A stretch of 64,000 nucleotides of DNA from a virus, in the IMG/VR virus record IMGVR_UViG_3300007513_000009; one strand, given 5' to 3'. Positions 1 to 64,000 of this stretch are shown piece by piece. The notes beneath the pieces were generated by a model, which saw only the letters and a program-made list of their open reading frames with translations, did not search any database and was not told the origin of the DNA. The translations under genes and the position numbers were made by a program. How positions within the stretch are numbered: the stretch's first letter is position 1; every line of letters starts with the position of its first letter.

Positions 1-1142
1 ATAAAGTAGATTTAACTACAAGGTTTACCAAGAATACGGTATTATCTATTCCAATAGTTGCGTCACCGATGGATACCATTTGTGAAGAAGATATGGCAAA
101 GGAAATGATGGATTGGGGTGGAGTTGGTGTCATACATAGGTTTCAGAGTATTAAGGATCAAGCTCGTATGATGAGATCATTACATTATGAATGGGATAAA
201 TACTTTACACCTTTGAGTGGTAATGATAACGAAGAAGAAAGAACTATAGATAAAGAATGGGATGAATGGTATAAGAGTGTAAAACATTGGAATCATCCAC
301 CTACTAAATCAGATTGGAAAGATTTAAAGGATAGATTTTATTGGACGGATTCTTTGATTCGTGATGAAAAGATTTGGTCTAAACGACCACTATGTGCAGC
401 CATAGGAGTTACGGGTGATTATAAAGAGAGAGCTCAGGAGTTAGTTAAGAATGGATGTAATGTATTATTTATAGATATAGCACATGGACACCATTTGTTA
501 TTAAAAAATGTTGTTAAGGAGTTAAAGAATGAATTTGGACGAGATGTTGAAGTCATCGGGGGTTCGATTGCGACACCGGAAGCTGCCAGAGCATTATGTG
601 AATGGGGGGTGGATGGCATTCGAGTCGGCATCGGTAACGGATCATTATGTGAAACGAGAATCAGAACTGGGGTGGGACTTCCTCAGATTACTGTTTTGTC
701 TGATGTGTGTTCCGTTGCTGACAATTATAGTGTTCCTTGCATCGCTGATGGTGGCGTTAGGTATGTGGGTGATGTGGCTAAAGGACTTGGGGCAGGGGCT
801 GATTCGGTTATGCTCGGCTCTATTATTGCTGGGACGAAAGAAACGCCAGGTGAAATTATAAAACAAGGAGAATGGCCTAATGAAAAGCTATACAAGAAAT
901 ATAGAGGAAGTGCTTCTCTCGATAGTAAAGCTGACAGAGGAGAATCTAAAAATGTGGAAGGAAATTCTAAAATCATTCCATATAAAGGTAAAGTCATCCG
1001 CATTATATCTGATATTCGTGATGGTCTTGGCTCATCTTTTTCTTATGTTGGCGCGAGTGATGTATTGGATTTTCAATCGAGGTGCGAATTTGTTAGGGTT
1101 ACATCCGCTGGAACGATAGAAGCAAAACCACATTTACTATGA
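1..1142 (+). CDS. guaB: IMP dehydrogenase / GMP reductase family protein, 5' truncated by the window edge
   Basis: Frame is open upstream of 69 (KVDLTTRFTKNTVLSIPIVASPMDT). Motifs GGVGVIHR, IDIAHGH, GIGNGSLCETR (catalytic Cys), IADGG, YRGSAS, VEG. IMPDH versus GMPR not resolved. Confidence 0.88.
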   Translation, partial: KVDLTTRFTKNTVLSIPIVASPMDTICEEDMAKEMMDWGGVGVIHRFQSIKDQARMMRSLHYEWDKYFTPLSGNDNEEERTIDKEWDEWYKSVKHWNHPPTKSDWKDLKDRFYWTDSLIRDEKIWSKRPLCAAIGVTGDYKERAQELVKNGCNVLFIDIAHGHHLLLKNVVKELKNEFGRDVEVIGGSIATPEAARALCEWGVDGIRVGIGNGSLCETRIRTGVGLPQITVLSDVCSVADNYSVPCIADGGVRYVGDVAKGLGAGADSVMLGSIIAGTKETPGEIIKQGEWPNEKLYKKYRGSASLDSKADRGESKNVEGNSKIIPYKGKVIRIISDIRDGLGSSFSYVGASDVLDFQSRCEFVRVTSAGTIEAKPHLL

Positions 1143-1320
1143 AAAAAAAGACTTAACAGGTTATAATTTGATAATTATAGACAGAACATAGTTGGAGATT
1201 TTTTTATGAAATTTATTATAGACTATTCCACAATACCAAGCGTTACATATACAGACGTTTGCCTGCAATGGGTGACCGATACTTCATATTCAATAGAAGT
1301 AGTATACGGAGATTAAAATA

Positions 1321-4641: not shown

Positions 4642-5028
4642 GTGGGCAAACAAGTTAAGAAGCATGGATATAGTTGTAAGTTAGTCAGAGTTGTCGATGG
4701 AGATACTGCAGACGCTATGGTTGATTTAGGATTTAATGTGTGGCATAAGGTGAGAATAAGATTTTATGGTGTTGATACTTGGGAAAGTAGAACTCGTAAT
4801 TTAGACGAAAAGAAAAAGGGTTTAGCAGCAAAAGCTTATGTAAAGGACCTTTTAGAAAATTCTGATGATGGTAAATTTTCAATTATATCACATGGTGTTG
4901 GTAAGTATGGTAGAGTTCTTGGTGAGCTGTTTGTTAAAGGACATGATACTTCGGTAAATGAATTATTAAAAGAGAACGGACACGCATATGAGTATCACGG
5001 TGAAAAGAAAAAAGTATTTGGAAGTTAG
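4642..5028 (+). CDS. thermonuclease (SNase-like) family protein
   Basis: RVVDGDT…RIRFYGVDTWES…GKYGRVLG…VNELLKENGHA. Confidence 0.9.
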   Translation: MGKQVKKHGYSCKLVRVVDGDTADAMVDLGFNVWHKVRIRFYGVDTWESRTRNLDEKKKGLAAKAYVKDLLENSDDGKFSIISHGVGKYGRVLGELFVKGHDTSVNELLKENGHAYEYHGEKKKVFGS

Positions 5029-14475: not shown

Positions 14476-14546
14476 GCGGGTGTTGTATAATGGTATTACC
14501 CCAGCCTTCCAAGCTGGTGATGTCGGTCCGATTCCGACCATCCGCT
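14476..14546 (+). tRNA. tRNA-Gly(TCC), near-canonical
   Basis: Acceptor GCGGGTG/CATCCGC, anticodon arm CCAGC-CTTCCAA-GCTGG, T-arm GTCGG-TCCGATT-CCGAC, U73; no encoded CCA. Confidence 0.93.
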
Positions 14547-14574
14547 CAAAAATATATTTGTATTTAGGATTTTT

Positions 14575-19881: not shown

Positions 19882-20872
19882 ATGTTTAGTAATGAGTTTT
19901 ACGATGAACATTCATTTCCAAATGAAAATCATTATTTGGTAAATGGGAGTACAATGAATCAACTATTAATTGTTATTATGGGTTTAATTGAAGAGAGGCC
20001 CGAAATAAATGAAAAGTTTTTATTACCATTGGTGGAAAGATTAGTAGAAAGTGAAGAGATGAAAACATCAAGCAATTTGAATGAAATTTTAGATAGATGC
20101 GGATTAACCCTATATAATGGACAAGATGATGAAAGATAAACAAACCCATATAGTTAAGATGGATGATAAACAGGTTGACTTTTTGGTTAAATGTATTGAC
20201 ATAGCACAGGATACACAAAGTATTCATCCGGATTTAACGGAAAGTCAAATTATCAAACAACTAACCAATATATCACAAGCTCATGAAGATGATGAGTTAT
20301 CAGGATATGAATTAAAGTATGAATGAAATACTCAATATATTGATAATTCCAAATTATACACATTGGCACACCATAGTTGGGGTGTTGATTCTGATGGGGT
20401 TGATTGAATTGATAAATCATTGGTGGAACAATAGATTAAAATGAAGAAACCAATGAATTGGATTGAAGGTATGTCGTTGGAGTTAAAGGGAAAGAAAATA
20501 AAGGAAAGAATAAGATATTTAAGAAATGAATTAACTGCCGAGGGGCATTTGGATGGTTGGGTGTTAACAGGGTTAAAAAAAGAATATGAAGAACTTAAAA
20601 GACAAATTAAAATTTAAAAAAACTCTCCAAAGTCATACTCATCCTATAAAACCAAAAATGATTATAAAGAGTAAGTTGGATAAAGAGAAAGAAAGAAGAA
20701 ATCAAAAGATTAATTTGAGAAAAATGTTTGATGGATTGAATGACTTAAAATGAGTGAAGTTGAAGAGGCAAAATTAAGAGAAGAGATGATACTAATGTGG
20801 TGTCGTAATATAGGTAAACCATATATATTGAAAAGAATTTGGAAACGATTTATGGAGTGTATAGATAGATGA
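19882..20872 (+). other. run of small hypothetical genes (19882-20139, 20117-20326, 20319-20444, 20441-20617, 20750-20872)
   Basis: Short, mostly overlapping ORFs; several fall below the ORF-track cutoff. Confidence 0.55.
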
Positions 20873-21099
20873 ATATTCATATTGAATATTGTGGGGAATG
20901 AAATTACAAACCAAGAGCCCTTAGTTTAAGGGAAGAGTTAAAGAGTAAGTTCGATATATTTAGATTTGAAATGATAGAAAGTGTCGGCGGAGTATTTGAA
21001 GTGAAGTTAAACGATCAATTGATTTTTAGTAAGAAGAATTTAAATAGATTTCCCAAAGATAATGAGATAATAGAGATTATCGAAGGAATGGATCAGTAG
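20869..21099 (+). CDS. SelW/SelT/SelH (Rdx) family selenoprotein with in-frame TGA (Sec)
   Basis: MNIHIEYCGE-U-NYKPRALSLREELKSKF…GGVFEVKLNDQLIFSKKNLNRFPKDNEIIEII; TGA at 20899-20901 lies in the CxxU motif; GGAG RBS and ATGA coupling. Confidence 0.9.
20918..20932 (+). promoter_or_regulatory. bacterial SECIS-like hairpin
   Basis: CCCTT-AGTTT-AAGGG; loop begins 21 nt after the TGA, with G at loop position 2. Confidence 0.65.
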
Positions 21100-32915: not shown

Positions 32916-32987
32916 GCGGTGGAAGTATCAAAGGTGATACACTTCGTTTCCAACGAAGAAGGTGGGGTTCGATTCCCTAACACCGCT
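32916..32987 (+). tRNA. atypical tRNA-Gly(TCC)
   Basis: GCGGTG/CACCGC acceptor, CTTCG-TTTCCAA-CGAAG anticodon arm, TGGGG-TTCGATT-CCCTA T-arm, U73; G7·A66 mismatch, A8, C14. Confidence 0.85.
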
Positions 32988-33018
32988 CAAAATTTGAACG
33001 ATAACCAAATGGTATGGT

Positions 33019-57900: not shown

Positions 57901-59740
57901 AACCAATTATCACATAGTTAGTATGTCGGTATCTTCATCCATCGGTAATGGTATAAGTAAAGTTATGGCGAAAAGGGCTAATAGGAATTTTAGAAATTCA
58001 GGTAGTATTGCAGCTGATGGTACAAGATCTCAAAATTTATTAATTGGTGAAACTTTAACTGGTTCAATTGCAGAGGTTAGGGGTTGGAGTGGTTATTTAA
58101 GTTCTTCAAAATTTAAACAACATATTTTGAATTATGAAAGTACGGTTAGTAGTCATATAACAGCTTCTTTTTCTGATATAATATATCGTTATAAATTAAA
58201 TGAAGGATATATAAATTCAGATACAAATTCTGATTTAGCATCTTTAACTATTAATGATGCAAATCCTTTAAATGTACAGGATTATACTCATTTACTTACA
58301 ACTCAAGATAATTTAAATTTTAGAACTGTAACTACAGAACAGACTTTTTATGTATTTGTTGTTCGTGGTGTTGGTGATGTTTTAAATAATAATATGATGA
58401 ATCTTTATCCTGAATTATATTCTCAAGGAAGTTTAAATCCATTTTTTGATTCTTTGACACAACCTTATGATGGAACTCCTGGTAGAATTTTTTCAAATAA
58501 TTTTGGTACAAATTTATCATATGTTAATGCAATAGATTCATTAATTTTTAATATGATTCCTGATTTTAGTTTGGAAAATCATATAGGAGATTATGATACA
58601 ACATTATCTGATATTTATAGAGATTTATTATTATTAAGAAAATCATTAATAGGAAATTCACAGATTACTGTAGATGTACAAAGTAATTTAAGTAGCGTAG
58701 AAAATTTTGTTAGTTTAATAGATGTTGATGTTCTTGAAGAACTTATGCCGGCTAATACACAATTAAATTTTTCATATGATATAATGAATGATGTATTGTA
58801 TAGAAATAAATTTAAAAATCCAAAATTACAAACTGAATTAAATCCGAATCAAGTTGTTGGTAGTGCAAGTTTTGCTAAATTAAATATAGAAACATTTCTC
58901 AATAATAATGTAAAAAATGCTATTGTTGATGTAACCGATGAAGAGTTAACACTATCATCTACATTAAATAATAATTATAAAGAAGGAACTGTTTTGGCGG
59001 GAACAGAAGAATTAACTATCAGTTCCACATTAAATGATAAAATTAAATCTGCAGAAATAAAAAGTAATACTATATATTCTCTTTCTTCAGAAACAGTTTC
59101 CATTAAATCGAATGCAGTTTCATTAAATACTGTAGATTTAACAAATTCATATAGAGAGAATGTTTATGATTTAATACCAAGCAATTTCACCAATCTTTTA
59201 TTAGGTTCAAAGAATGAGTTTTATAAAAATCATGGAAAGGGTCCAAATCAAACTTGGTTTAAATCTGCAAATCCTGGAACTGGTAGTACTTATAATACTT
59301 ATCGTTATGAGGATAGATTTACATTTCCAACTATAGGTGATACTGAACTTTATATACCAATAACTGCTAGTAGAACAACAGGAGTTAGACAAAAGAATAA
59401 TAAACATGATGAATTTAAAGATTTTTATAATCGCAATTTTATTGATTCTGGTCAGGGATATAGTTATTTAACTTTATATCAAGAAAATTCTTCAATAGAT
59501 GGGAGAATGGTTGGTAGAACAAGTTACTTTAGTTCTTCTGAGGGTAATATTTATTATCCATCAAATCATTTTATGAACGCAAGAACTAATAAAGATGTTT
59601 TGGTTAATTTAATTTACAAAGGAACTCAACACAATGGAACTAATCCAACAAAAGATCCAATGGGTTTAGATACACAATTTACTTCATCAGCTTATACAAC
59701 AACGGTATCTGGTGAAGGTAGAGCTTTGAAAATAACATAA
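54983..59740 (+). CDS. large baseplate/tail structural protein
   Basis: IDEVSSTRKEIR, IDYSEFKNHIYFGSA, FVNMLGEEFD, NNLIYIYKTKGSIESIKSLLNIYG (P2 gpI-like wedge segment). Confidence 0.65.
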   Translation: MDIKYTYNSDVMSVISGSEARTLPVFEPDFKIKLSVYSNGIYRDSFVLEEDKDYYIKRGGEDVIILKPNDKLDEGGFFQGDYELQYDFIQRIEVATYIDEVSSTRKEIRVRSKDEGVVSNESFISTTYAVLHDNDGQYRFDGFIELPDNEYIPINSFAEDRFTHIFPEDYETENLQGQPNPTLIFKLNNPLSNQIGRLYQDFKIVRKFLPTQTQEIFLADVESLAIRAKALEVDVSGDPEETLNDVGYESYGTITGSFGGGIIDDFKRDKKDLNLNIDYSEFKNHIYFGSAVSKIENFKDKAVELEGLYRSLTFTLHLSSSVDIKNKRKKLFKDIKEIESNFTSYERFLYTDGQNYSTASAPGLGVNLAGSNFDNKFGFVTSSVDFDGFDKIHHFTSSNAPLHMFTNIYDVAEPPFYNTNNWVYLSFILSGDRASDATYDLITENSSSNVIYGNGSLSEFTYNKNVTLPEEAASGSTLLNPTATGSEYKRYIIKAQQNYWRPVENKNIINISWPVAELNEDYEILSGSNVISASISGSVGDGFAYGILDTSGQHTPYFFPNRVDEKGLMNPFTKVTGSVLPQGDLFPIRIKENGNYETYVSDVRVTYKDPTNTHPFSPIYRPPSGSYAGSTEWNSWYTGTLSSASLYDNDNIHSLVNNLPSFLREDNQHKTLRDFVNMLGEEFDLLRNYIDNYLNFYKLGYKNPNTVPNNLLPVIADSSGWKLISSMSSSLSDYIETNKTEEIGSKNAIDATWKKILNNLIYIYKTKGSIESIKSLLNIYGFNADSFGLREYGGSVQEHNPTVITNDAQDLLDGLGGTTGSITFVESIKPFSMLNVSSGSANFGNNRFGVDWFCSGSEPNGLELVFNAEEPTSNVTQSLMRLSGSNNDLWNINLIPEHNTSTTKGKIQFRLNRTANGSGTTHFSMETPLIDNLFGDNIYNLILQRNSGSDFEDGFPLSQSYQMFVGRKDDDAITNYHIVSMSVSSSIGNGISKVMAKRANRNFRNSGSIAADGTRSQNLLIGETLTGSIAEVRGWSGYLSSSKFKQHILNYESTVSSHITASFSDIIYRYKLNEGYINSDTNSDLASLTINDANPLNVQDYTHLLTTQDNLNFRTVTTEQTFYVFVVRGVGDVLNNNMMNLYPELYSQGSLNPFFDSLTQPYDGTPGRIFSNNFGTNLSYVNAIDSLIFNMIPDFSLENHIGDYDTTLSDIYRDLLLLRKSLIGNSQITVDVQSNLSSVENFVSLIDVDVLEELMPANTQLNFSYDIMNDVLYRNKFKNPKLQTELNPNQVVGSASFAKLNIETFLNNNVKNAIVDVTDEELTLSSTLNNNYKEGTVLAGTEELTISSTLNDKIKSAEIKSNTIYSLSSETVSIKSNAVSLNTVDLTNSYRENVYDLIPSNFTNLLLGSKNEFYKNHGKGPNQTWFKSANPGTGSTYNTYRYEDRFTFPTIGDTELYIPITASRTTGVRQKNNKHDEFKDFYNRNFIDSGQGYSYLTLYQENSSIDGRMVGRTSYFSSSEGNIYYPSNHFMNARTNKDVLVNLIYKGTQHNGTNPTKDPMGLDTQFTSSAYTTTVSGEGRALKIT

Positions 59741-59794
59741 TAGATATATAAAACTTTTTTTGGATATATTTATTAACAAACAGGGAAAGATATT

Positions 59795-60433
59795 ATGGGT
59801 TTACTTGATAATGATACAGTAATAGTTGACGCTATTTTAACAAAGGCTGGCAGACGGAAATTAGCAGAAGGTCAGCCAATTGGAATTACACAATTCGCAT
59901 TCGGTGATACTGGAGTGGATTATACTTTATATAATCCAAATCACCCCGATGGTTCTTCTGCTTATGGTTCAGCAATAACTTCATTACCACAAATGGAAGC
60001 TGTACCGCATGAGTTGGTTTTTATGAGATCAAAACTTTGGGGAACTGGACAACGAAATGTACAAACTTATTCATATATAAATTTACAAAATACTACAGAA
60101 ACAATTTCAAAAACAAATGCATCAGGTGGAGAAGGGTTTACAAGTCAACCAATTACTATTGTTGCATCTGTTGTGCCTATAGTACAAAATCCCAGCTATA
60201 CATTTAGAATTTTAGATGCTAGGGGTTTGATAATAAATGATGATTCTACAATAACTTCTCCTTTTGATAGTCCAGATGTTTTTCCTTATCAAGTAAGTGG
60301 TCCGGATTTGACTTTGAATGCTAGGGCTGGAGAAATAACTGCACAGAAAGTAATTGGTGTTGAAGTTCGTAGAGATGGTTCCGCTCCGGCCTTTTGTACT
60401 GTAACTATAGAATCAAATACTTCTAATACTTAA
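59795..60433 (+). CDS. baseplate/tail-fibre attachment-type structural protein
   Basis: MGLLDNDTVIVDAILTKAGRRKLA…ITQFAFGDTGVDY. Confidence 0.6.
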   Translation: MGLLDNDTVIVDAILTKAGRRKLAEGQPIGITQFAFGDTGVDYTLYNPNHPDGSSAYGSAITSLPQMEAVPHELVFMRSKLWGTGQRNVQTYSYINLQNTTETISKTNASGGEGFTSQPITIVASVVPIVQNPSYTFRILDARGLIINDDSTITSPFDSPDVFPYQVSGPDLTLNARAGEITAQKVIGVEVRRDGSAPAFCTVTIESNTSNT

Positions 60434-60448
60434 TGAATAGGAATTGAT

Positions 60449-61519
60449 ATGTTAAAAAGTATAAATCCACAAAATGATGTAGTGATAACTGAAATTACTG
60501 TTACGAATGGTTTTTTTGGAAGTGCTGGTACTGGTACTGTAGCTGCAAATACTATAAAAACTGCTTCTTTATCTGCTACACAAAAAGAATATTATTATAA
60601 TTTACAATATGGTTCCACAGATCATTTTACTGTAGCTTATGGACATATGCGTGGTAGTGGTAGTAATGCTGATGCTGCAAATGAAGTAGGTTCAACAGAG
60701 GCTATATATAAAGGATTTTATAATTTAGTAGAACCATCATCAGATAAATTAAGAGATGGTGCTGGTTGGTTGATAGCTGATGGTACAGATAGTACAAATC
60801 CAGTAACACAATCTGATTGTTATTTTATTGTTGCTGAAAGACTTCAGATGAAAGATAGGTTGAATCCTGGAACTTGGACAATATCATTGAGTGGTTCGAT
60901 AGCAAATGGTACTGGTAAAACTTTAAATTTAACAGATAATAGTGTTAATAATGATCCAGAAGCTCCAGGCTCTCCATTTGGTCCAAGATATTCTGTAAAG
61001 TCTGGTTCTGCTGGTACATTATATGCTTCAGATACTCGTGAATATGGTAAGTTTTATCCTGATGCTGGATTGGTTGTATTGAGTGCAAATGCTCTTTCTT
61101 CTTCGTTGCCAGGTAAACCCGCTTATCAACAAGCAGCTGATCCATTTGCTACTTTTGTTGGGGTTGGGGTAAATCCAGATACTGGAAGTGATGATAATGC
61201 AGCCGATAATGCTGGAAAGTTGGCAGCATGTATGATATCTTCTTCACAGACAATGCGTTCAGAAGAACAGCAATATATTTATGATTATTTTTGTAGAGCT
61301 AGAGCTAATGAATTTAATCTTACTAATAATGTAACATTTTGGAGTGGTTCTCAATATAAAATAAGACATAATGATATGGTAGCAAATCCACAAACATATT
61401 TAAGTGAAGTTGGATTATATGATAATACAGGAGAATTAATGGCAATTGGAAGAATAAGTTCTCCATTGAATAAAAACTTTAGTTCAGAGGCAATCGTTAA
61501 AGTACGATTGACTTATTAA
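60449..61519 (+). CDS. tail-collar/fibre-attachment-like structural protein
   Basis: C-terminal TYLSEVGLYDNTGELMAIGRISSP…VRLTY. Confidence 0.65.
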   Translation: MLKSINPQNDVVITEITVTNGFFGSAGTGTVAANTIKTASLSATQKEYYYNLQYGSTDHFTVAYGHMRGSGSNADAANEVGSTEAIYKGFYNLVEPSSDKLRDGAGWLIADGTDSTNPVTQSDCYFIVAERLQMKDRLNPGTWTISLSGSIANGTGKTLNLTDNSVNNDPEAPGSPFGPRYSVKSGSAGTLYASDTREYGKFYPDAGLVVLSANALSSSLPGKPAYQQAADPFATFVGVGVNPDTGSDDNAADNAGKLAACMISSSQTMRSEEQQYIYDYFCRARANEFNLTNNVTFWSGSQYKIRHNDMVANPQTYLSEVGLYDNTGELMAIGRISSPLNKNFSSEAIVKVRLTY

Positions 61520-61527
61520 GTGATCTT

Positions 61528-62487
61528 ATGCCGGAAGGAAGAAGGCTTTTTACTGAAGGTCAAGTAAACACCTATTTATTTAGAGCTCACAAAACACAAT
61601 CCCTAAGTCAAGCCAATATAACCAGATATCAATTTCTGTCGGCTTCAAATGAACCAATTTCTTCTAGTTATTATAATTTTTCTCGTATAAATTTTTATTT
61701 AAGTGGTTCTGATATAGCACAAACAAATCCTTTATTTAATTCATATCCTACTGTTGGTAATAGATTAGATGGTCAGAATATATATTTAAATAAATTTTAC
61801 GAAACTGGTTCTGTCGGATTTATATCACAATCTTTATTTGGAGATGAAATAAAAAAAGGAAGTTTTATTCTTACTGATAATTCTACTGCAAAAGAAATTA
61901 AGATTGTTGATGATTCAAATGGTAATTTATATTCAACAAATGCTGTAGATTCTAGAAGTGTCGTTGACTCTGCGGACAACGAAACTTGGGCTGGTAATAA
62001 TCCATCATCATCAAAAAATTATGTTGGAAATATATTTTATGATACTGGAGTATTCACAATAACTGAAACAGGATCATGGAGTGGTTCAAGTGATGATACC
62101 AATCCAGGCGGTGTTATAAATTATAGTGAGGTTACTACTGGTAATTATGATGTTCAATTTCAAGGAAGTTTAGATATAAAGACTTATGAATATGTATGTA
62201 GAATTGAACCAAATGATTTTAATAATACTCAAAATATGACTATCTTTAAAGAAAATGGGGGTAGAGGCCCCTTTATCCATCCTGTTACTAGTGAATCTGT
62301 TTATCTTCCCATTCACGGGCAGGGGTCTTTAAAAGATAATTTAACTTCAAGTTATTGGCCTAATTATATTACCGAAGTGGGGTTATATGATGATAATAAT
62401 GAGTTAATGGCACATGCAAGATTATCCCAACCCATACCAAAATCAACACAAATACCTATGCGATTTTTTGTTAGAATGGATTATTAA
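61528..62487 (+). CDS. paralogous tail-collar/fibre-attachment-like protein
   Basis: C-terminal YITEVGLYDDNNELMAHARLSQP…VRMDY. Confidence 0.65.
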   Translation: MPEGRRLFTEGQVNTYLFRAHKTQSLSQANITRYQFLSASNEPISSSYYNFSRINFYLSGSDIAQTNPLFNSYPTVGNRLDGQNIYLNKFYETGSVGFISQSLFGDEIKKGSFILTDNSTAKEIKIVDDSNGNLYSTNAVDSRSVVDSADNETWAGNNPSSSKNYVGNIFYDTGVFTITETGSWSGSSDDTNPGGVINYSEVTTGNYDVQFQGSLDIKTYEYVCRIEPNDFNNTQNMTIFKENGGRGPFIHPVTSESVYLPIHGQGSLKDNLTSSYWPNYITEVGLYDDNNELMAHARLSQPIPKSTQIPMRFFVRMDY

Positions 62488-62535
62488 CTTAAATAAATAA
62501 ATATTTATAGTTATAATGTAATTTTGGAGAGTCAA

Positions 62536-63825
62536 ATGTTAAAGAAAATCATAGTTAGTTTATTATTATATACACCACTATTCAGTCAAAATTTTGTATC
62601 AGACTTTTTTAAGTATTCAACTGCTTATGCTAGCTTCAGTTTAAACTCCCCAAGACATCAAGATGATAGGTTTGCTATTATCGGAGGATTTGTTACTGGT
62701 GATTTAGAAGTTGAAAGAGAAGAAAGAGAATTAGAACCAAATTTTGAAAGATCGTTTGGATTGAGAAAAATCGGTAGATTTAATTATGAACCAAAGAGGG
62801 GTGTTAAGAATGCTGGTGTTGGTGGAACTTGGTATGATGGTTCGGAACAAAATTCTAATAAGAATGCTACAATAGGGCCTGTAAGGGGTTGGGAGTATTC
62901 AATTAAATGGACTCAAGGACGAATATGGGGTGATGACTATATTAATCAAGAATATTGGTTAAGATATATAGGTGATTGGATTGTAGGTAAAGTAGGATAT
63001 ACAGAGCTAGGGTTAGAAGAAGTAGAATATAGGCATGGTGATTTAAGGATAAAGTGGTCACCTAATTTTTTAGATAATAAATTATCCATTAGTGTGGGTG
63101 CTAAACATAGACAACATCCAGTTTATGGTTTTGATGCTATGGTTTTAGATACTACTTGGTATAGAGGTTCTTGGTGGGATTTTGTAGAAAATGCTTTTGG
63201 TTGGGATGATAAAAGGTGGTATGCGGTTGATTCAGCATTTCATTACCATCCAGGAGAATTAGTATATTTTGATCCAGCGTCAGATTCTTGGATTTCTGTT
63301 CCGGGTGATGGTCCTTTCTTTAGTGGTAATGGGGAATTCCTTGGATATGATTATATGTGGTTGAATCCAGATGGTGAGATAGTAGCTTGGACAGATAGAG
63401 AATTTTTCTTATATTATTTTCCAGGTATGTTAGAAGAATATATGGATAGACTTGTAAAAGATTTAGGATATCAGAGGGAAACATCACTTATAATTGGTGT
63501 TGATTATTATCATTATGGGGATAGATGGTGGTTTCATGGTTGGGGAAATTGGATGCCATATCATTACGGACATGACAAATATTCTTATCACAATGCTGCA
63601 CATTATAAAGAGCATTTAGAGAAAGGTATGGAACCACACACGATGATGTATATGGAACCGATGTGGATGGAGTGGAATGATTATGATTTTGGTGCAATTA
63701 TCGGTATGAAGGTGCAGGAGAATCTTGGAGTTTTTGCTGAAGGCAGTTATCTTTATTATTGGGATAAGCCTGCTTATAATTTTAAAGTGGGTTTGAATTA
63801 TCAATTTGTGGGGTTTGAATTTTAA
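62536..63825 (+). CDS. putative outer-membrane beta-barrel protein
   Basis: Signal peptide MLKKIIVSLLLYTPLFS-Q, aromatic strands, C-terminal YNFKVGLNYQF…F; GGAG supports the 62536 start. Confidence 0.65.
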   Translation: MLKKIIVSLLLYTPLFSQNFVSDFFKYSTAYASFSLNSPRHQDDRFAIIGGFVTGDLEVEREERELEPNFERSFGLRKIGRFNYEPKRGVKNAGVGGTWYDGSEQNSNKNATIGPVRGWEYSIKWTQGRIWGDDYINQEYWLRYIGDWIVGKVGYTELGLEEVEYRHGDLRIKWSPNFLDNKLSISVGAKHRQHPVYGFDAMVLDTTWYRGSWWDFVENAFGWDDKRWYAVDSAFHYHPGELVYFDPASDSWISVPGDGPFFSGNGEFLGYDYMWLNPDGEIVAWTDREFFLYYFPGMLEEYMDRLVKDLGYQRETSLIIGVDYYHYGDRWWFHGWGNWMPYHYGHDKYSYHNAAHYKEHLEKGMEPHTMMYMEPMWMEWNDYDFGAIIGMKVQENLGVFAEGSYLYYWDKPAYNFKVGLNYQFVGFEF

Positions 63826-63826
63826 T

Positions 63827-63967
63827 ATGCCAAATAAAAATGCTAAACAAAGAAAATGGAAACGTCAAAAAGCTAATAAGTGGTTAGCAGAAAATGGTCG
63901 AACTGCAAATCAAATTAAAAAAAAGAAACAAAAACAAAAAAATTTATTGAATAAACGAGGATTATAA
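63827..63967 (+). CDS. small basic protein
   Basis: MPNKNAKQRKWKRQKANKWLAENGRTANQ…, read by hand. Confidence 0.5.
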   Translation: MPNKNAKQRKWKRQKANKWLAENGRTANQIKKKKQKQKNLLNKRGL

Positions 63968-64000
63968 TGAATGGGGGTCTTAAAATAGGAAGATTGCTTT

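Follow-up and report, generated by a model that had tools for sequence, protein, structure and literature searches.

The 64,000 nucleotides of viral DNA analyzed here (hereafter the window) form part of the 131-kb IMG/VR record IMGVR_UViG_3300007513_000009, which is classed as linear and is estimated to be ~70% complete. At positions 20869-21099 of its plus strand lies a gene of a T4-like marine phage for a small SelW-like protein of the Rdx family, in which an in-frame UGA codon is, in our view, very probably read as selenocysteine (Sec) by the machinery of the host, directed by a hairpin of the type of the bacterial selenocysteine insertion sequence (SECIS), yielding a redox protein with a CxxU centre. 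Both the protein family and the decoding mechanism are already known; it is the carriage by a phage that is new.

Gene, protein family, and predicted fold

The coding sequence comprises 76 codons followed by a TAG stop (21097-21099), and the lone stop codon within this frame is a TGA at 20899-20901 (codon 11). When this codon is read through, the protein starts with M-N-I-H-I-E-Y-C-G-E-U-N-Y-K-P-R-A. As was claimed in a preliminary description of this DNA, the single TGA occupies the second position of a CxxU redox motif, i.e., codon 11 in I-E-Y-C-G-E-U-N-Y; the motif C-G-E-U (Cys8, encoded by TGT, to Sec11, encoded by TGA) spans 20890-20901 on the plus strand and is located between beta1 and alpha1 of the predicted structure. 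The same description regarded the frame as a complete Rdx/SelW-like protein, and the matches to hidden Markov models bear this out. The Pfam profile Rdx (PF10262) aligns from end to end (profile positions 1-73 of 74) with an E-value of 2.8e-21 and 75.9 bits against a cut-off of 22.6, while the scores for NCBIfam NF041051 (SelT/SelW/SelH family (seleno)protein, equivalog; 100 bits) and TIGR02174 (CXXU_selWTH; 70.2 bits) exceed the curated cut-offs of 88 and 34.2 bits, respectively. A profile constructed from close relatives matched eight solved chains of the Rdx family, and in the alignments the TGA stands opposite the second Cys of the CxxC motif in human MIEN1 (2LJK) and in Agrobacterium Atu0228 (2FA8).

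The AlphaFold model of the protein, with a predicted local distance difference test (pLDDT) score of 95.2, has the order beta1 (residues 2-8), alpha1 (14-27), beta2, beta3, beta4, alpha2, and C8-x-x-U11 is placed in the loop preceding helix 1. A Foldseek search with this predicted model retrieved the bacterial SelW-related structures 2FA8, 2OBK (P. fluorescens), 2OJL (Bordetella), and 2P0G (Vibrio) at template modelling (TM) scores of 0.88-0.91 and root-mean-square deviations of 1.1-1.4 Å, and mouse SelW (2NPB) at a TM score of 0.77. The fold is, therefore, the same beta1-alpha1-beta2-beta3-beta4-alpha2 arrangement as in these solved structures and MIEN1 (TM 0.77-0.91), in which the redox motif likewise stands in the loop before helix 1. 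However, most of the solved chains possess CxxC, whereas the phage protein has CxxU; identity amounts to only 24-32%, and the phage protein is a minimal domain without extensions. Profiles and model together indicate that the product is a minimal thioredoxin-like protein of the Rdx fold with a CxxU centre. Its role as a thiol/selenol oxidoreductase is a predicted one.

With translation table 11 only a C-terminal open reading frame (ORF) of 42 amino acids is listed at this place (20971-21099, plus strand), starting from an internal ATG, and a gene caller would, therefore, miss the full SelW-like gene; the selenoprotein is indeed hidden from the ORF caller, as had been proposed. The identical 42-aa fragment was called by the Joint Genome Institute (JGI) in a near-identical contig (P0047 / L100). 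Since the internal Met with which it starts is not conserved in relatives, we consider the fragment an annotation artefact.

The in-frame UGA and the hairpin downstream

The TGA is retained in 12/12 distinct phage or metagenome copies (IMG/VR and assemblies), in 78/78 loci that were readable out of the 80 best-matching bacterial relatives, in 72/74 parsed best metagenome loci, and in 69/70 hits within a sample of 151 genomes of the phylum Marinimicrobia. Altogether it occurs at the redox position in >150 loci, and TGG was not encountered at this position in any of the copies read at the DNA level. Three more distant relatives (P0057, P0060, P0073) have Cys (CGEC) in the UGA column, making up a Sec/Cys pair, in line with the earlier statement that bacterial SelW-like proteins carry either CxxU or CxxC here. 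The same TGA, followed by an identical hairpin, is present in two contigs from independent samples that share ~94% DNA identity with the window, and a sequencing error, which had been named as one way in which the reading could fail, is therefore excluded. The codons after the TGA are under purifying selection: the ratio of nonsynonymous to synonymous substitution rates (dN/dS; Nei-Gojobori) ranges from 0.06 to 0.63 over all pairs of nine copies and is 0.06-0.08 for the closest pairs. The residues directly after the TGA (N-Y-x-P-R-A) are conserved, and both the TGA and the open frame downstream persist in diverged copies down to 44% identity.

A hairpin (20918-20932, plus strand) starts 16 nt after the UGA and consists of a 6-bp stem, CCCUUA (20918-20923) paired with UAAGGG (20927-20932), around a GUU loop (20924-20926); if the U of the UGA is numbered 1, nucleotides 20-25 pair with nucleotides 29-34 around the three-base loop. 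The preliminary description had reported a CCCTT-AGTTT-AAGGG hairpin at SECIS spacing. The element and its spacing are present, but the 5-bp stem leaves an A-U closing pair open and is better replaced by the 6-bp stem with GUU loop. The hairpin keeps one and the same register across 85 distinct sequences, taken from phages as well as from many bacterial phyla, where pairing is found in 92.9% of the cells of the alignment and double-sided changes occur in five of the six pairs (112 cells). The covariation score is 0.681, compared to 0.264 ± 0.020 in shuffled alignments, with none of 500 shuffles reaching 0.681, and control stems in which the 3' arm was slid by 1-3 columns score no higher than 0.27. 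For the 12 phage-type sequences alone, 98.6% of the cells are paired and four pairs show double changes. Some of the double changes (CUU...UUA to CUC...UUG) affect the third positions of two Leu codons without altering the amino acid and, consequently, the constraint acts on the RNA and not on the peptide alone. The loop reads G-U-U, G-U-C, or G-U-G in most sequences.

Bacterial SECIS (bSECIS) elements have been constrained to a loop of 3-9 nt, an upper stem of 4-16 bp, a G in the first two loop positions, a distance of 16-37 nt between UGA and loop, and a minimum free energy of -7.5 kcal/mol or lower (PMC13188914). The phage hairpin falls within this geometry, with its 3-nt GUU loop, in which a G at position 1 precedes a U, its 6-bp stem, and 22 nt from the UGA to the loop. 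As in the SECIS of E. coli fdhF and in the bSECIS model, it is a stem-loop within the coding sequence directly 3' of the UGA, with a small G-U loop; its 6-bp upper stem and 22-nt spacing lie within the ranges of the model. Compared to the fdhF element, the phage hairpin is considerably reduced in length and stability (-5 to -6.3 kcal/mol for its conserved part), and a bulged U was not seen. The loop G of the phage hairpin would be 3 nt more distant from the UGA than that of fdhF.

Some observations weigh against selenocysteine decoding. The free energy of the hairpin is -5.0 kcal/mol alone and -6.3 kcal/mol in 45 nt, and the threshold of -7.5 kcal/mol is passed only in a 63-nt context (-8.7 kcal/mol), through outer pairs that are not conserved. 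The fold of the single sequence is not significant (z = 0.08), although this score carries no information when the hairpin is only 15 nt long and the DNA AT-rich, and comparative counts were used instead. Selenocysteine insertion at the UGA is, furthermore, something we infer from sequence. The significance of the hairpin derives from the comparison with relatives and not from this copy alone. A scan of the window against Rfam, in which bacterial SECIS elements are not modelled, returned two tRNAs only.

If the UGA is decoded as we propose, SelB of the host, loaded with Sec-tRNA(Sec), would bind the hairpin 16 nt 3' of codon 11, with the G-U loop as the expected contact of SelB. The ribosome would then insert selenocysteine at the UGA instead of terminating, which would place a C-x-x-U centre where helix 1 begins, and the protein would alternate between two forms, selenol/thiol and selenenylsulfide. 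It would thus be a small cytoplasmic oxidoreductase encoded by an auxiliary redox gene of the phage. We infer delivery by the SelB of the host because of the established bacterial pathway, in which SelA, SelB, SelC, and SelD act together with a SECIS directly 3' of the UGA.

It seems very improbable that the UGA specifies a standard amino acid (Trp, Cys, or Gly), by means of a suppressor tRNA or of a recoded host code (translation table 4 or 25). Public gene calls do place W in homologues: the public protein collection contains ~55 clusters at 50-99% identity, nearly all with W at the UGA position. However, for all four of the clusters that were looked up, the encoding contigs give the protein only when TGA is translated as W, and we attribute the public W residues to table-4 gene calls on short AT-rich contigs. 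Trp in homologues, which would have spoken against selenocysteine, is thus not genuine; the W represents a TGA read with table 4, the solved and distant relatives have Cys, and no homologue has TGG. It could also be argued that the phage has two tRNA genes and that recoded stop codons are known in some phages, but both of these, the only tRNA genes in the 131-kb record, encode tRNA-Gly(UCC) (14476-14547 and 32916-32988 in the window) and neither has the anticodon UCA. Moreover, TGA is an ordinary stop elsewhere, as previously stated: it ends 9/36 plus-strand ORFs of ≥150 aa in the window, 17/78 coding-strand ORFs of ≥80 aa, the ORF directly upstream of the SelW-like gene, and the HSP20 gene, where the Pfam match reaches the last residue. 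Reading TGA as sense would lengthen the plus-strand ORFs by only ~7%, and the window does not display genome-wide reassignment of UGA (tables 4 / 25). Trp in place of the catalytic Cys/Sec of a CxxC fold would, furthermore, abolish redox chemistry, the conserved G-U-loop hairpin at SECIS spacing would have no role under plain suppression, and the bacterial relatives in which this TGA recurs belong to phyla with the standard code that possess SelA, SelB, and tRNA-Sec.

Slightly more improbable still is that the UGA acts as a real stop, so that the locus would be a decaying pseudogene or encode a peptide of 10 residues, with the remainder either untranslated or translated from the ATG at 20971. 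The restriction of the table-11 call to 42 aa, the termination of other genes of the window by TGA, and the thermodynamic weakness of the hairpin would all fit such a stop. It does not explain, however, why the TGA and the open frame have been kept in all diverged copies, even at 44% identity, nor why dN/dS downstream of the TGA falls so far short of 1, with N-Y-x-P-R-A conserved. The internal Met required for a shorter product is not conserved in relatives, and the covariation of the hairpin is the signature of a Sec signal.

Phage carriage and the likely host

Several lines of evidence place the gene in a phage genome. All but one of the long ORFs of the window are on one strand, and among the products encoded by the record are a major capsid protein of the T4 type (Gp23, E 2e-76), a baseplate wedge subunit, a CobS-like AAA ATPase, HSP20, and a staphylococcal nuclease (SNase)-like protein. 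A Pfam search for the T4 portal protein gave no match, but neither did its control, and the search is therefore uninformative. The G+C content of the selenoprotein gene (30%) is close to that of the window (31.6%). In nine other IMG/VR contigs an orthologue is found beside homologues of genes of this phage, and in 43 of the 66 phage-type metagenome loci one or more of the neighbouring genes have a homologue in this record, compared to none of the 14 Marinimicrobia-type loci. In a maximum-likelihood tree, which was obtained from 74 columns and is of weak resolution, ten phage copies group together (support of 88 in the Shimodaira-Hasegawa-like approximate likelihood ratio test, SH-aLRT), apart from the Marinimicrobia clade (SH-aLRT 95) and adjoining a mixed set of copies from Calditrichota, KSB1, and Deferribacterota and two unplaced contigs. 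That the gene is cellular, derived from bacterial DNA misassembled onto a phage contig or from the flank of a prophage, is the least probable of the alternatives, since, even though the family is overwhelmingly bacterial and the record is a linear and incomplete metagenome assembly, the gene sits mid-contig between phage genes on the same strand, has a similar G+C content, shares its record with Gp23 and the baseplate wedge, has phage neighbours in the contigs and loci counted above, and belongs to a cluster of phage copies.

In most related phages the selenoprotein gene directly follows, on the 3' side, an SNase-like gene that is 88-95% identical to window positions 4642-5028. Here, the SNase-like gene (4642-5028) and the selenoprotein gene are 16 kb apart, and the region has, therefore, been rearranged. 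Searches of the GenBank phage collection (megablast of 14 kb and tblastn of the protein) yielded no cultured phage relatives with the gene.

No match to SelA, the AIRS domain of SelD, the winged-helix domain of SelB, or tRNA-Sec was obtained in the 131-kb record. The phage must, therefore, depend on a Sec-competent host, in agreement with the proposed reliance on the SelA/B/C/D of the host; it should be weighed against this that, at ~70% completeness, sel genes may be located in the remaining part of the genome. The phage would contribute the signal on the mRNA only, with SelA, SelB, SelD, and tRNA-Sec being provided by the host, and a productive host would consequently have to be one that uses selenocysteine.

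This dependence constrains the host, as the preliminary description anticipated. In the five Marinimicrobia genomes that contain the nearest named relatives, SelA and SelB are encoded adjacently in four, and tRNA-Sec is above the Rfam threshold in all five. By contrast, SelA was detected in none of the 151 sampled SAR86 genomes, and 135 complete Pelagibacter genomes are reported to lack selC (2026 preprint 10.64898/2026.04.03.716425). The Sec requirement thus discriminates among the abundant AT-rich marine hosts. SAR86 had been considered as donor or host of the gene and was rejected, since, in addition to the missing SelA, 150 of the sampled genomes do not contain the gene; the one genome of this order that does has it on a 4.5-kb contig (L082 / G156:C44) that was probably mis-binned into the metagenome-assembled genome (MAG). 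The leading candidate for the host is Marinimicrobia/SAR406. Three observations argue against this assignment: the identity of the phage copy to the Marinimicrobia copies is at most 59%, the phage copies are not nested inside the Marinimicrobia clade of the tree, and a 5-kb part of the window (59000-64000) has no DNA match in the five Marinimicrobia genomes.

The closest cellular relatives of the phage clade (64-68% identity) are of a C-I-E-U type and are found on L116:1-5219 and at ~20 similar metagenome loci. The L116-type gene is located among ordinary metabolic genes of a marine bacterium (those for D-serine dehydratase, an amidohydrolase, and a glutathione S-transferase). The amidohydrolase encoded there, with identities of 60% (SAR86) and 63% (Marinimicrobia), does not discriminate between these two groups.

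Known selenoproteins, a second candidate, and variants

SelW-like selenoproteins with a CxxU motif have been described for bacteria from the Sargasso Sea and Global Ocean Sampling (GOS) metagenomes (PMC1088965, PMC2398784); they have been known in marine bacteria since 2005, when the contigs with SelW were attributed to bacteria. SelW-like genes have been regarded as bacterial in selenoprotein surveys of the ocean. The phage gene belongs to the same family and agrees with these genes in size, CxxU motif, position of the UGA, register of the hairpin, and G-U loop. It differs in its carrier, which is a T4-like phage and not a cell, and in forming a cluster of its own, distinct at the identity to Marinimicrobia copies given above. 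A survey from 2021 lists few or no viral sequences in the selenoprotein families (PMC9402790), and in a 2026 review of prokaryotic selenoproteomes the words phage and virus do not occur (PMC13188914). In the literature searched, outside of which most subscription papers fall, bacteriophages are nowhere reported to encode a selenoprotein; that selenoproteins are seldom described in phages thus agrees with what we found. Among viruses of eukaryotes, molluscum contagiosum virus and fowlpox virus encode selenoproteins that are homologues of glutathione peroxidase. These viruses resemble the phage in carrying a selenoprotein gene while relying on the Sec machinery of the host, but their SECIS elements are located in the 3' untranslated region and the protein family is another one.

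A second candidate selenoprotein is encoded by the same phage outside the window. It is a protein of 385 aa of the AhpC/TSA-Redoxin type with an in-frame TGA in W-U-P-S-C (L098, G000:C1:98300-99800, positions 153-1310, minus strand), and its gene is situated directly downstream of an ORF for a 663-aa protein resembling ribonucleotide reductase (RNR). The protein has a C-terminal Por_Secre_tail sorting domain (type IX secretion), a domain typical of the Bacteroidota-related (FCB) group, which includes Marinimicrobia. No hit to glutaredoxin (PF00462) was obtained in the record, of which ~30% is estimated to be missing. Given the RNR-like ORF, the lack of a glutaredoxin-family hit in the recovered part, and the position of the SelW-like gene near thyX in relatives, it is possible, if speculative, that the SelW-like protein, perhaps in the place of a glutaredoxin, supplies reducing power to the nucleotide metabolism of the phage.

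Taken more broadly, there is a reasonable case, though one we hold with distinctly less confidence than the decoding of the gene itself, that marine T4-like phages of Sec-using bacteria carry a small selenoproteome (here at least two members, the SelW-like protein and a secreted AhpC/TSA redoxin). They would represent the first selenoproteins of bacteriophages, a considerable part of what passes for the most abundant "bacterial" selenoprotein family of the ocean would be viral, and the presence of such genes would serve as a host-range marker that excludes hosts lacking Sec, such as SAR11 and SAR86. A conserved clade borne by phages would add selenium-dependent redox chemistry to the auxiliary functions of marine phages, and the fitness of such phages would hinge on the selenium status of the host and on its SelA, SelB, SelC, and SelD. 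For uncultured phages, Sec dependence may offer a clue to host range at the level of the sequence. The very small conserved SECIS could also be of use as a compact element for Sec-insertion experiments.

There are also consequences for annotation, as pipelines either cut the gene to 42 aa or, via table 4, deposit a false Trp at the active site. Dozens of deposited homologues (clusters P0002-P0046 and others; L003-L008, L099, L100) are affected by such calls.

With respect to its immediate surroundings, the gene is preceded by an ORF of 40 aa (20750-20872, plus strand), the TGA stop of which overlaps the ATG of the selenoprotein gene as ATGA (20869-20872), and a GGAG is present 11 nt 5' of this ATG. 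As read from these letters, the arrangement suggests that translation of the SelW-like gene may be coupled to that of the upstream ORF.

A few relatives depart from the common pattern at the redox position or at the end of the gene. In a sublineage of the L006/L116-type group (metagenome contigs L126, L137, and L154) the Sec codon has become TCA (Ser), resulting in C-M-E-S, and in L154 the Cys has been replaced as well (S-M-E-S), with the remaining protein intact. This sublineage may have lost the redox function or may have adapted to a cell without Sec. A relative in a MAG of the Verrucomicrobiales (L038:3001-3225) has TGA at both redox positions (U-G-V-U), and may represent a form with two selenocysteines. 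Finally, the orthologue in the IMG/VR contigs L009 and L010 is apparently terminated by a TGA, in place of the TAA or TAG of the other copies, and a table-4 gene call (P0015) extends 15 residues beyond this terminal TGA; a single mRNA would, as it appears, use UGA both for Sec, with the aid of the hairpin, and as a stop.

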